A stretch of DNA of 64,000 nucleotides from Kiritimatiellia bacterium. Its GTDB lineage: Bacteria > Verrucomicrobiota > Kiritimatiellia > RFP12 > UBA1067. This document shows, one piece after another, positions 58,805 through 63,020 of this stretch (its first letter is position 1; each line of letters opens with the position of its first letter). Under the pieces are notes generated by a model that had not been told where the DNA came from, made no database searches, and worked only from the letters and a program-made list of their open reading frames with translations. Location of the stretch: positions 160,001 through 224,000 of the forward strand of contig JBMNFY010000010.1 in the NCBI GenBank assembly GCA_050949565.1, written 5' to 3'. Position numbers and translations under genes: made by a program.

Positions 58805-58838
58805 ACTTTAAATACCTGTCCCTTAGTTGTCCTGGCCT

Positions 58839-58948
58839 CATGGGCGAGACGCCCATGCCACGGGGTGTGGCACGGGCATCCTGCCCGTGTTTGCCCCATG
58901 GGCGGGACGCCCATGCCACGGGGGTGTGGCACGGGCATCTTGCCCGTG
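58839..58948. repeat. Intergenic REP cluster (4 copies, alternating orientation)
   Basis: REPs at 58839-58861 (-), 58867-58889 (+), 58897-58919 (-), 58926-58948 (+). Confidence 0.9.
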
Positions 58949-60273
58949 TTCTGCGTCATCCCCCGGCACGTTCCAGATTCAACGCCAGAAGCCGTTCGAG
59001 GATCACGTCGTCGGAAAGATCGGCGGGCCAGCCGTAGGCGGCGGCGACGGCGGCATCAAGCCGAGCATGGCAGTCGGCCAGCCATGTCGGACGGGCGTTG
59101 TAGAGCTTTGTAAGGGTGCGCTGCCTGAGTTCTGCGGCTGACGCGCCTTCGGGGTTGAGCCAGCGGTCGCGCTTCACGACAAGGTCACGGGCCGCCTCGG
59201 CGATAGCCTTGGTCTCCACGGGACGCGGAAACGTCTCAAAACTGGTCGTCGGTGTGTAGCGACAACCGCTTGCGGCCTCACGCAACTGCGTTCCTTGGGC
59301 GCGAGCCCACACTTCATGGAAACGGGAATGGAGAATGCCGAAAAAGGCGTCGTCATCACGGGCGAAGACCAGTGTTCCCTGATTACAAAGCACTTCAGGG
59401 GAGACCCAAACAAACAGACGGTGTTTTGATACTCCAGGCGTAGCGATATAGCGCCGCTTGCCTCGCAAGGCGGTACGCATTTCAGGCCGGGGTCTGGCAT
59501 ACTGCCACCACATGCCCCGGTAATCGTCGCGCCGCGTCTCGCGCACAGGCAGAACATTCGCTTTCACGTATTCAAACGGTTTTTCATACTGGGCGGCTTC
59601 CCCTATCGGCATCACTCCAAAGTCAATGGTCCACATTCCGCGCGAGCCTTGGGCTATATCGACCGCACTCACGACCGGGCGCACAACGTCGGCGTTGGGA
59701 CGGCCGTTGGGGTTTCCCTTGTCGGCGAGCATCACTGCGGCGGTTTCAGCATCAATATCAAAGGGCGCTTTGGGTGATGGCCCCATGAAACAGATTCCCC
59801 GATTCTCGGCGAGAATAGCTGCCGTTGTGATGTCGGCGCATGAGGTGAGATTGGCGTTGATCGTGGCGACCAGGTTGCCGTCGAGAATGCGGGACTGCTC
59901 CTCGCCGTCGTCGAAACCGACCATGCTGACGTGGACATTCGCGCCGTCGAGAATCCAGGGGCGGTCGCTCTCGGCCCAGAAGATGTCGCCGGATTCCTTG
60001 ATGCGCTTGAGCACCTCGCGGTTGGCGCCGCCGCGGATGCCCTGGGTGGCGAGTAGTCCGGCGCGCCTGCATTTGCCGACGGCGATGTGGGCACGGGCCT
60101 TCTCGAACCAGTAGCAGCAGAGATCGGCAAACGCCGGCACACGGCCTTCATAAAGAGCGAACAGCTGCTCGACGTAATCGCTCCCAAGCTCCTGCCGGAT
60201 ACGGTTCCCGCCCAGAAACGGCGGGTTGCCGATGATGAAGTCCACGGCGGGCCATTCAGGTTCGCGCACGTTT

Positions 60274-60376
60274 GTGGCACGGGCATCTTGCCCGTGGGGT
60301 GCTGTACTTGTGGCATGGGCATCCTGCCCATGTTGGCTCACGGGCGGGACGCCCGTGCCACGTCCGCCCGTGCCAC
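60274..60376. repeat. Intragenic REP cluster on the 3' side of the RAYT domain
   Basis: REPs at 60274-60296, 60310-60332, 60339-60361 plus a partial copy. Confidence 0.9.
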
Positions 60377-60404
60377 ACTGAACGCTTATGCCACACGCGA
60401 CGCC

Positions 60405-61001
60405 CATCCATTTCCAGTCTGCCAGTCCTGCTTGTGCTGGATTCTTCAGCACGTACTCCACTTGCTTGCGAAAATCTTTTTCATCTCGGATGAGATGGTC
60501 ATAATATTCGGCCTGTCAGAATTCGCCGCTCCGGTTCAGGATTTCGTTCGCCTTCTTGGCCGTGAACGATTTCCACGAGTGCAGGATGTCTGCCACGTTG
60601 TGCCCTGCGGCGGGGCGTAGAACGGCATGCACGTGATTGGGCATCACGCACCAAGCCAGCAAGGTGTAGCGGGGGCCGTCGAAATGGGCGAGGGCGTCGC
60701 GCACGATGCTGGCGATGCGCTCGTCCTTGAGCCAACATGCGCCATAGCCGCTGTCCAGCCACTTCTCCACCTTTTCCGCATACAACACCGCCAGACGTTG
60801 GCGCTCAGACTCGGAAAGGTCGCGTCCCGCTTGGGACGCGGTCTTGACAATGTCCTCTCGCTCCATGATCCACTGCCGCAACACCTCTGACGGCAGAGAA
60901 TCACACAGCCGGAAGACAACGACATAGGTGGCGTTCTCCTGTGTCCAGTGCGGCAGATAGGCACCGTGACGTATATCCACGCGGGCAAAGGGGTTCAGCA
61001 T
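60405..61001 (-). mobile_element. REP-associated tyrosine transposase (RAYT, Y1 HUH) domain embedded in the R-M reading frame
   Basis: YLPHW...YVVVFRLCDSLP; LLAWCVMPNHVHAVL (HUH); SWKSFTAK; F*QAEYYDHLIRDE; EYVLKNPAQAGL (catalytic Tyr). Confidence 0.9.
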
Positions 61002-61020
61002 CGTGGCACGGGCGATGTTT

Positions 61021-61261
61021 GTGGCATGGGCATCCTGCCCATGTTGGCTCACGGGCGAGACGCCCGTGCCACCCGCCGTATTCGTGGCATGGGCATCCTG
61101 CCCATGTTGGACCACGGGCGGGACGCCCGTGCCACCCGCCGTATTCGTGGCATGGGCATCCTGCCCATGTTGGCTCACGGGCGAGACGCCCGTGCCACCC
61201 GCCGTATTCGTGGCATGGGCATCTTGCCCATGATGGCCCACGGGCGAGACGCCCGTGCCAC
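61021..61261. repeat. Intragenic REPIN array, 4 units, 63-bp period
   Basis: Units start at 61021, 61084, 61147 and 61210; translated as GTGVSPVxxHGQDAHATNTAG. Confidence 0.95.
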
Positions 61262-61713
61262 GTTCGCCCGTGCCACGTTCGTCCGCGCCACAGTCGATGA
61301 TCGCGCTCATCAGCCGGATGTTGTCAGAGAGGGGGCGCAGGATCGGATCGGCGGGGAAGCCGAAACCGTTGACGCGGATCCACTGCAGCCAGCCGATCCA
61401 GACGGTCATCTGGGCGAGGCCGTGCGCGTAGGGGTTGATCTCGATGCCGTAGAGCTGCCACGGGCCGACACCGGGCAGGTAGGTGTTCAGGCCGTGTGCG
61501 CTGGGGAAGATGACGGCGGCTTCGAGTTCGAGGTCTTTCAGTCGCAGAAGGGCGACGTAGAGGAAGTTGCCGGAGCCGCAGGCGGGGTCGAGAATCTTCA
61601 CTTCGCGCAGCCGTATCAGGAATTGGTGCAGGATGCTGTCGGCTTCGATCCGCGCCTTTTTAAGGGCGGCGGCACTCAATGGTTTGCGATTAGATGTGGC
61701 GCGGACAATGTTC

Positions 61714-61891
61714 GTGGCATGGGCATCTTGCCCATGATGGACCACGGGCGAGACGCCCGTGGCACCCGCAGCATTCGTGGCATGGGCATCTTGCCCATGA
61801 TGGACCACGGGCGAGACGCCCGTGGCACCCGCAGCATTCGTGGCATGGGCATCCTGCCCATGTTGAACCACGGGCGGGACGCCCGTGCCAC
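61714..61891. repeat. Intragenic REPIN array, 3 units, 63-bp period
   Basis: Units start at 61714, 61777 and 61840; translated as xTGVSPVVHHGQDAHATNAAG. Confidence 0.95.
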
Positions 61892-63020
61892 GTTCGCCCG
61901 CGCCACGCTTCTTTCCGGTAGCCAGCAGGCATTCGATGGTCGCCTTGATCTCTTCCCAGTCGCGCCGCAACGGCGTCATGACCACGGTGTCCACAACCCG
62001 TTCGATGTCCTCGCGTCCGGTGAAATGCGCGCCGAGCTGCGAACGCTTGGCCGGGTCGAGGCCGCGCTCGAAGAGGGTGCCGAAGATGGAGGGATCGACG
62101 GCGCTCCAGTCGAGCGACGAGACGGCGGCAAGCCGTTTGATGTCGTCGGGGGTGAGGCCGGGGACGGTGTGGTCGTCGAAGAGGCTGCCGTTGAAGTGGC
62201 GGATGGCCTCGAGACCGAAATCGCCGCCGGTGGCCATCGCCTCGAAGAGCGAGGTCAGGCTTCTGCCGAACCGCGCGGGGTCTGCGCCGGTCTTCTCCAG
62301 CATCCGGGTAAAGATCATGTCGGGCAGGAGTGCCGAGTCTTCGGCGAAGAGGCAAAAAACGATGCGGTCCAGGAAGTGGGCGACGGTGCCGGGGTCGAGG
62401 CCGCGTTCGCGCATGGCGGCGGCAATCTCGCCGATTCGGGCGGCGGCTTCCTGGGTGACGGCGACGCTGGTGCGGCCGGGGATGAGAGCCTTGGGATTGT
62501 GAAAGACGGCCCGCATGATTTCGATGTTGCGGGGCTCGGCGAGGGCTTCGAGCGGGATTTCGTGGACGTCGGATACGGTGCCGGTGAAGTTGGTGCGCAC
62601 CACGATGCGATCCAGATCGCACAGGACGAGCAGGGGCGGATTCTCCAGCGCATTGCGGTAGCGCAGGAGCTGGTCAAAGGCGGTGTCGAGATCCTTGTGC
62701 TTGCCCTTGTATTCCCAGCCAGCCGAAGAAGCCGCGCTTCCAGACATCGGCGAAGCCGTCGCCCCCGCCGTGCTTGGCGGCACCCTTCTCGAAGCAGAAT
62801 GACTCGCCGGTGGGATCGGCGGCTGCGGGCGTGGGATGGTCAAAGACATGGCAGAGGTCGAGAAAATGCTCTTGCGCGGCGGAGCGTTCCTTTAGCTCCA
62901 CCTTGCGCCACTTGGCAATGAACTCGTGTACAGTCATAGACAACACAATACCACGCGGATAAAGCCGGGAACAAGGCGGATGTGTAAGCTGACCGTTTCT
63001 AGCGTTTCTTGCTCATAAGT

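Follow-up and report, generated by a model that had tools for sequence, protein, structure and literature searches.

Can a whole transposase gene, together with its own repeats, be housed in the reading frame of another gene? This question is raised by a locus in a stretch of 64,000 nucleotides (nt) from a Kiritimatiellia bacterium (G000:C10:160001-224000, hereafter the window), where a gene for a REP-associated tyrosine transposase (RAYT), flanked by repetitive extragenic palindromic (REP) sequences, lies in frame inside an MmeI-like restriction-modification gene. RAYTs and REPINs are textbook 'extragenic' elements, and RAYT (TnpA_REP) genes flanked by REP or REPIN sequences were reportedly described as REPtrons in the years 2010 to 2012. 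The analysis presented here indicates that the RAYT and its REPs are probably a tolerated in-frame guest, translated within the host protein on disordered REP-coded linkers.

An MmeI-like restriction-modification gene with an in-frame insert

The host is an MmeI-like single-chain type IIL/IIG restriction-modification gene on the minus strand (62946..58956). It has the domain order of MmeI (PDB 5HR4), with a nuclease, a helicase-like spacer, a gamma-class N6-adenine methyltransferase and a target recognition domain in a single chain. Its segments were aligned to residues 14-353, 349-429 and 475-885 of 5HR4, and the ortholog from the genome G004 matched this protein in phmmer with an E-value of 1e-40. 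From 5' to 3' the composite gene is made up of the following parts:

62677..62946, minus strand: true 5' end of the MmeI-like gene, with a GTG at 62946; first ~75 codons, up to GFADVWKRGFFGW
61905..62720, minus strand: N-terminal part of the host in the shifted frame (EYKGK...), with the remaining nuclease domain and the MmeI helicase-like spacer (Pfam MmeI_hel, 50.6 bits)
61710..61904, minus strand: REP doublet array 1, an in-frame stretch of 65 codons with three 63-nt units that separates the spacer from the methyltransferase domain
61290..61709, minus strand: N-terminal half of the host methyltransferase (Pfam MmeI_Mtase profile positions 8-85)
61002..61289, minus strand: REP doublet array 2, four 63-nt units and a lead-in (96 codons), the upstream linker of the cassette
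60396..61001, minus strand: RAYT (TnpA_REP) coding region, 202 codons, with a Met at 61001
60267..60395, minus strand: REP cluster 3 (43 codons), the downstream linker of the cassette
58956..60266, minus strand: C-terminal part of the host, beginning with REPEWPAVDFIIGNPPF (60266), with motif IV at 60227, the rest of the methyltransferase, the target recognition domain and the stop codon (58956-58958)

The product of 62677..62946 aligned with the N-termini of the intact G004 open reading frame (ORF) and of the proteins P0008 and P0009, and with MmeI 5HR4 from residue 14; past GFADVWKRGFFGW this stretch is out of frame and runs into a stop. The N-terminal half of the methyltransferase contains motif I (DPACGSG, codon at 61589), the motif II region (YGIEINPYA) and motif III (NIRLMSAIIDC), and both motif I and motif IV (NPPF) are present in the translation. 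The Pfam MmeI_Mtase match is broken by the insert, with profile positions 8-85 before it and 136-257 (30.5 bits) after it. The MmeI_TRD match of the C-terminal part was borderline (26.9 bits at a cut-off of 27).

The insert extends from IIDC to REPEWP (61289..60267) and comprises 1023 nt, or 341 codons, in frame. It consists of REP doublet array 2, the RAYT and REP cluster 3, with the junctions ...IIDC|GADERG and ...ATNV|REPEWP, and by alignment it occupies the short loop between methyltransferase motifs III and IV (~430 to ~475 in MmeI 5HR4 numbering). The insert boundary was set by pairwise local alignment, as MAFFT scattered the insert-adjacent host residues of uninterrupted homologs. Upon translation, the minus-strand frame 62849..58956 had one stop only across the whole host and insert. 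The host frame runs straight through the cassette because the latter is in the sense strand, its length is a multiple of 3 and its REP units are stop-free in the frame used. Compared with MmeI, the motif III/IV loop of the composite is longer by ~340-370 residues and motif I is preceded by a REP array; in the window the nuclease motif is also frameshifted.

A REP-RAYT-REP cassette in frame between motifs I and IV, with a single TGA at a conserved Trp within the ~1-kb insert, was the core of the original prediction. Both statements were borne out by the minus-strand translation and by the TGG that G004 has at that codon. The prediction had passed over two features, namely REP array 1, a second in-frame insert that lies ahead of motif I and is distinct from the cassette, and a duplication of 4 nt (GGCT) that puts the true N-terminus (GTG 62946 to 62677) in another frame.

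The nested RAYT and its REP family

The RAYT has the HUH motif NHVHAV, the Tyr motif YVLKNP, of which we take the Tyr to be the catalytic one, and a conserved WQ. With the TGA read as W, it scored 82.5 bits against the NCBIfam profile REP_Tyr_transpos (NF047646, cut-off 80) and 32.2 bits against Pfam Y1_Tnp, and its motifs aligned to residues 48-125 of TnpA_REP (PDB 4ER8). An IS200/IS605 insertion sequence was considered and rejected, with 19.2 bits against NF033573 (cut-off 55) and one close copy in the genome. As in known REPtrons, an HUH/Y1 transposase with NHVH, WQ and Y..NP is flanked by its own REP family, is the sole close copy and is accompanied by hundreds of REPs in the genome. Unlike those, it is not free-standing between genes: host codons are in frame on both sides, and there is no stop of its own at either end. 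Its motif pattern matches that given for subclass 2.4 by Quentin et al. (2018; PMC6006769).

The genome G000 contains 475 matches to the REP pattern, in 248 clusters. There are 27 REP matches within 400 nt of the nested RAYT, while one other RAYT-like ORF of G000 has 2 and the rest have none. By the usual criterion the nested RAYT is the cognate RAYT of this 475-copy family. REPs of the same family are also found just downstream of the host gene:

58828..58950, strand not assigned: intergenic REPs, families D3 and D4

The in-gene REP arrays have an exact 63-nt period, and within G000 the 63-nt unit was found only in the two in-gene arrays. Units of intergenic arrays were mixed (49, 56, 57, 58, 59, 60 and 111 nt), with ~10 of 17 being multiples of 3. 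The contrast between a multiple-of-3 unit within the gene and mixed units between genes is suggestive, not decisive. Both arrays (61002-61289 and 61710-61904) contain the stem variants GTGGCATGGGCATC.TGCCCATG paired with GTGGCACGGGCGTC.CGCCCGTG, in which a stem base pair is swapped relative to the two majority REP types of G000 (198 and 124 copies). The largest REP array of G000 (C1:268036-268426) has 12 REPs with a unit of 57-59 nt and no long open frame across it.

REPs also occur inside other genes of G000. Open frames with at least 100 codons on each side spanned 29 REP clusters, and a Pfam scan of 16 of these placed REPs in frame in an Eco57I-like enzyme, FtsX/MacB, SbcD, fumarase and an endonuclease/phosphatase family protein. 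The six sites are C8:274265-278356, C17:1850912-1851961, C17:1847219-1848688, C8:231680-234559, C17:1264234-1267650 and C17:735181-736437, and the genes at them are an Eco57I-like enzyme, fumarase, SbcD, two FtsX/MacB permeases and the endonuclease/phosphatase family protein.

Intact orthologs and selection on the host

An intact version of the gene is present in another genome of the same genus. The syntenic locus of G004 (G004:C150) is 97-98% identical to the window at the DNA level and encodes a single ORF of 1375 amino acids (aa), with no stop or frameshift. The REP arrays of G000 and G004 differ by indels whose lengths (63, 141 and 219 nt) are all divisible by 3, the longest making the REP cluster 3 site of G004 longer than that of the window; otherwise, G004 has no 4-nt duplication and TGG for TGA. 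A further protein, P0001 (754 aa), is 99% identical over the RAYT and stop-free from the RAYT Met through the host C-terminal part. More distant orthologs, P0008 (1226 aa) and P0009 (1388 aa), carry a RAYT at the identical site, with identities of 71-75% in the RAYT and 61-80% in the host segments. The prediction had been staked on the existence of intact fusion ORFs, and G004, P0008 and P0009 provide three.

Since P0008 and P0009 share the insertion site at ~75% identity, the insertion appears to be old. The REPs around it were far less constant: their copy numbers were unequal at every site among G004, P0008 and P0009. At the site of array 1 there are 4 units in G004, one REP in P0008 and no REP unit in P0009, which has a short GTG-like stretch (ATGKPPA), and a C-terminal REP site is present in P0008 and P0009 and lacking in G004. 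Hosts with an empty site were represented by the closest full-length cluster representatives (930-970 aa), 7 of 8 of which have 4-11 residues between motif III and EP.WP..GNPPF; the alignment of the eighth, P0249, was ambiguous.

Comparison of G000 and G004 gave a ratio of non-synonymous to synonymous rates (dN/dS) of 0.137 for the host parts (47 synonymous and 21 non-synonymous substitutions) and, between the window and G004, of 0.089 for the host C-terminal part alone. In the REP-coded parts the ratio was about 1.0 (5 synonymous and 14 non-synonymous). These values show that the host parts were under purifying selection after the insertion, and that the REP linkers are near-neutral and variable in copy number.

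The open frame could also be a by-product of G+C-rich, stop-poor sequence, left by an accidental insertion in a dead gene. The window copy is indeed frameshifted and contains a stop, a G+C content of 60% makes long spurious frames common, and most REP clusters of G000 were open in 4-6 frames. Such an accident would hardly have left intact composites of 1226-1388 aa with the same site in three other lineages, or a host dN/dS of 0.14. Nor does it fit with nested copies in the genes for valyl- and alanyl-tRNA synthetase (ValRS, AlaRS) and IspG, or with the two genomes (G007 and G100) whose sole priA above the curated cut-off is RAYT-bearing. We consider this explanation extremely improbable.

Lesions of the window allele

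The host reading frame in the window is not intact, and neither is the coding sequence of the RAYT, as two lesions separate this allele from that of G004:

62721..62724, minus strand: 4-nt tandem duplication GGCT, a frameshift that falls between Asp and E-x-K in the nuclease motif (G000/G004 alignment)
60516..60518, minus strand: TGA stop in place of the conserved Trp codon (TGG in G004) in GEFWQAEYYDH, ahead of the catalytic Tyr motif

The duplication, which lies inside D...E-x-K, disrupts the nuclease motif. The change of TGG to TGA shortens the RAYT to a product that ends before its catalytic Tyr, and cuts the methyltransferase in two. In the window strain the restriction half has thus been hit as well as the RAYT.

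The locus was detected at a fraction of at least 0.96 of the sampled words in 14 DNA runs from digesters and sludge. Contigs from DNA runs of two other studies, X4 and X12, matched the window exactly over the TGA (60317-61048) and, without gaps, over the duplication (62177-62754 and 61862-63000). As the same lesions are present in these independent metagenome contigs, both belong to a real, widespread strain and are no artefacts of a single assembly. A contig of an RNA-library run, X16, lacks the 4-nt duplication. Together with the stop-free P0001, this contig establishes that intact alleles coexist with the broken one. X16 also has an extra C behind 62233, and may represent another frameshifted relative or a contig error. 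Contigs from the RNA libraries bridge two host/REP junctions (X15, 60041-60354; X16, 61589-61799) and cover host parts; the RAYT body (60407-60954) was in no X15 or X16 contig, and these contigs are unstranded and their libraries may hold DNA.

The same contigs bear on whether the cassette acts as a switch at the DNA level. In some cells of the population the RAYT, or recombination between the directly repeated REPs, would excise or re-insert the cassette and so turn the enzyme on and off, with the interrupted form as the off state or as an altered one. RAYT-type enzymes cleave and join single-stranded DNA at REP hairpins, REP units are directly repeated on both sides of the RAYT, and REP copy number changes fast between close relatives, all of which would suit a switch. 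No DNA contig of X4 or X12 joins across the cassette, a weak argument as contigs drop rare variants, and every joint listed links REPs at 58920-58948 to 60272-60338. In addition, the RAYT was kept at one site through ~25% protein divergence, and the host halves were under purifying selection while interrupted. A switch of this kind therefore seems very unlikely.

Structure model of the intact composite

The structure of the intact composite was predicted with AlphaFold2 for residues 432-1375 of the G004 protein. The model had a mean predicted local distance difference test score (pLDDT) of 75.5 and a predicted TM-score (pTM) of 0.59. Its confident parts were the host N-terminal part (10-119), the RAYT (209-397) and the host C-terminal part (528-944), and both REP-coded stretches (120-208 and 398-527) had a pLDDT below 50. 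Across the insert, the model could be superposed on MmeI 5HR4 over 496 residues (Z 25.5, root-mean-square deviation (rmsd) 4.4 Å), and its RAYT on TnpA_REP 4ER8 over 134 residues (Z 15.1, rmsd 2.4 Å). An AlphaFold check of the methyltransferase fold had been proposed together with the prediction; the match across the insert is consistent with a preserved fold. We regard the model as a consistency check and not as independent proof.

Nested RAYTs in other host genes

Proteins of 355-2000 aa matching the window RAYT at E<=1e-10 numbered 1565, and the hosts were surveyed in the best 120 of these long proteins, ordered by similarity to the window RAYT. At least 120 residues were present on both sides of the RAYT in 88 of the 120, and the HUH motif was kept in 116, compared to 115 of the 120 free-standing relatives listed. 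Y1_Tnp-type domains nested in N6-methyltransferase, MmeI and other ORFs, for which a search had been suggested, were found among the 120. Hosts acting on DNA included type IIG enzymes, DUF1156 and PF01555 proteins, type ISP enzymes, HsdM, HsdR, NOV_C proteins and helicases. The other hosts included ValRS, AlaRS, IspG, MetH, Sua5, TatD, aminotransferases and isochorismate synthase. Cultured isolates were among the carriers, for example one of Opitutaceae with the nested isochorismate synthase (P0120) and one of Pontiellaceae with the TatD-RAYT (P0050). In a sample of 12 proteins, one host domain was split in two around the RAYT in 6 (IspG, MetH, ValRS, AlaRS, an aminotransferase and a type ISP enzyme). 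In the Sua5 protein of this sample the RAYT stands between two host domains, and in TatD it is a C-terminal addition.

In the order to which the window belongs (319 genomes), 19 of the 150 RAYT matches listed were in open frames of at least 500 aa, 13 of them with a host family in the same frame. These 13 hosts comprise two PLD-SNF2 proteins, HsdR, PriA, Eco57I-type enzymes, UxaC, a decarboxylase, an M28 peptidase, DUF1156, an SNF2-NOV_C protein and the MmeI-like gene; one PriA and one Eco57I-type enzyme were further nested cases in the order. The loci L053, L054, L057, L058, L060 and L061 had no host family or an ambiguous one and were not counted. Two of the order's cases illustrate the range of hosts. 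L014 (G024:C19, 4148-10893) encodes an SNF2/NOV_C helicase of 1439 aa that has a RAYT nested in it and, at the C-terminus, a REP-coded repeat of 10 residues; it adjoins a DUF1156-type methyltransferase gene, and the locus looks like a defence island with the helicase as host. L052 (G142:C98, 4505-6742) is a 746-aa open frame in which the glucuronate isomerase UxaC lies in two Pfam stretches around the RAYT, a purely metabolic host within the same order.

The relationship of nested and free-standing RAYTs was examined in a FastTree phylogeny of 239 RAYT domains. The host labels were clustered on the tree, with 54 changes compared to 116.5 when shuffled, and free and nested states had interchanged at least 11 times. 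The window RAYT fell in a well-supported clade of 7 rows, the hosts of which are all type IIG enzymes with varying insertion sites. Among the 10 same-clade loci with a free-standing RAYT that were examined in the order, none had a recognisable host gene split by the RAYT; all were intergenic, after complete genes. Two of the 10 lie within type I restriction-modification operons, as hsdS|RAYT|hsdR (L008, G029:C2) and as hsdM|RAYT|hsdS (L026, G107:C127), which ties this RAYT clade to restriction loci in a second manner.

The range of hosts bears directly on the possibility that the HUH/Y1 domain was recruited by DNA enzymes, for example to be carried to single-stranded or foreign DNA, so that the composite is a functional unit. 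DNA enzymes abound among the hosts: genes for methyltransferases, restriction enzymes or helicases make up ~51 of the 120 long proteins listed and ~12 of 15 nested cases in the order, the latter including two PLD-SNF2 proteins, HsdR, three PriA and type IIG enzymes. The type IIG-only clade of the window RAYT and the two type I operons point in the same direction. Against such recruitment, equally close RAYTs reside in genes for ValRS, AlaRS, IspG, MetH, Sua5, an aminotransferase, UxaC and a peptidase, and even type IIG hosts differ in the insertion site. Besides being long and near-neutral, the linkers are predicted to be disordered, and the nested RAYT keeps the flanking REPs of its family as an ordinary RAYT would. 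The host listing is itself biased to relatives of a RAYT that resides in a restriction gene, as the similarity ordering starts from that RAYT. On balance we think a co-opted module unlikely. The original prediction had offered, as one of its two readings, a domesticated HUH module coupled to an MmeI-like defence enzyme; a coupling specific to that enzyme is not supported, given the close relatives in ValRS, AlaRS, IspG, MetH, Sua5 and aminotransferase genes.

Discussion

The composite gene is best explained by a tolerated guest. A whole REPtron would have entered a surface loop of 4-11 residues between methyltransferase motifs III and IV long ago, and the composite would be translated as one polypeptide. 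The RAYT may fold into an HUH/Y1 domain of its own, tethered by two long and disordered linkers that the REPs encode, with the two methyltransferase halves still assembling around it. The element would gain the transcription and translation signals of its host and need none of its own, and from such a site it could be lost without cost to the host only by a precise in-frame deletion. Selection would purge out-of-frame or antisense insertions, which may be why only in-frame guests and intergenic copies are seen.

Several points weigh against this explanation. The window copy is a recently dead composite and not a working system. The selection estimate comes from a single pair of close relatives, which differ by 68 substitutions across the host parts, and the 4 differences in 197 codons of the RAYT between G000 and G004 (1 synonymous, 3 non-synonymous) are too few to judge selection on the RAYT itself. 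The RAYT may be initiated separately at its Met in the window and in G004; the RAYTs of P0008 and P0009 have no Met at the N-terminus. The alignment behind the structure model held uninterrupted homologs with partly misaligned flanks. The excess of DNA enzymes among the hosts is not explained by a purely passive model. Finally, translation as a single chain, the gain in expression and the selection for phase are what we infer from sequence.

A more far-reaching version of the guest explanation is conceivable. One RAYT clade, widespread in Planctomycetota, Verrucomicrobiota and Kiritimatiellia, might have become a permanent in-frame guest with REPs that are harmless to coding, being stop-free and a multiple of 3. 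It would favour restriction-modification enzymes and helicases as the host carries the tethered HUH domain to DNA and horizontally mobile restriction genes spread the element between genomes, making the two a co-adapted pair. We find this rather doubtful.

A selfish nuclease gene that lies in frame in conserved host genes and uses the expression signals of its host is known from inteins with homing endonucleases. The nested RAYT resembles these in being a nuclease gene in frame in conserved hosts, the imprecise loss of which would harm the host. The Pfam scans of the composite listed only Y1_Tnp within the insert and gave no match to a Hint or intein family, and the junctions are repeat peptides predicted to be disordered; an intein was accordingly rejected. 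In contrast to inteins, there is no sign of splicing, and the guest presumably stays in the mature chain. The other reading of the original prediction, an intein-like REPtron that inserts into a permissive loop and is expressed as a fusion, fits the comparative data as far as the in-frame guest is concerned, given the intact ORFs, the purifying selection and the many hosts; the likeness to inteins does not go beyond the shared niche.

In-frame REPs as such have been reported before. Di Nocera (2013; PMC3733652) describes GTGG-headed REPs in the verrucomicrobium Opitutus terrae, including intragenic in-frame copies, and, with reference to Ogata (2000), the palindromic elements of Rickettsia, many of these insertions being in DNA enzymes. 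Short palindromic repeats are likewise in frame in apparently functional genes of G000 (fumarase, SbcD, FtsX/MacB and the Eco57I-like enzyme). As far as these sources were covered, the known reports differ in concerning repeat peptides of 20-80 residues only, while here a transposase gene (~200 residues) is included. Quentin et al. (2018; PMC6006769) observed in-frame REPs within tnpA_REP genes themselves, and excluded 'unexpectedly long proteins', which they took for fusions or errors. The literature searched, which lay outside the supplementary lists of Di Nocera (2013; Additional files 3 and 4) and Quentin et al. (2018; Additional file 1), yielded no account of a RAYT nested within the ORF of a host. 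RAYTs, REPINs and in-frame REPs are thus already known, and the whole RAYT as an in-frame guest is apparently undescribed. New here are the restriction-enzyme host, the datable conserved insertion site and the pair of intact and freshly broken alleles.

ORFs of this type should not be split or flagged as pseudogenes unchecked during annotation, and in-frame guests would account for thousands of database proteins regarded as a 'fusion or annotation error'. If the explanation is correct, enzyme loops tolerate much foreign sequence, with 340-450 residues in a loop of the methyltransferase core, and such loops would offer natural permissive insertion sites for protein engineering. Selfish genes would then have, next to introns and inteins, a third means of hiding within a host gene, one that is free of splicing.

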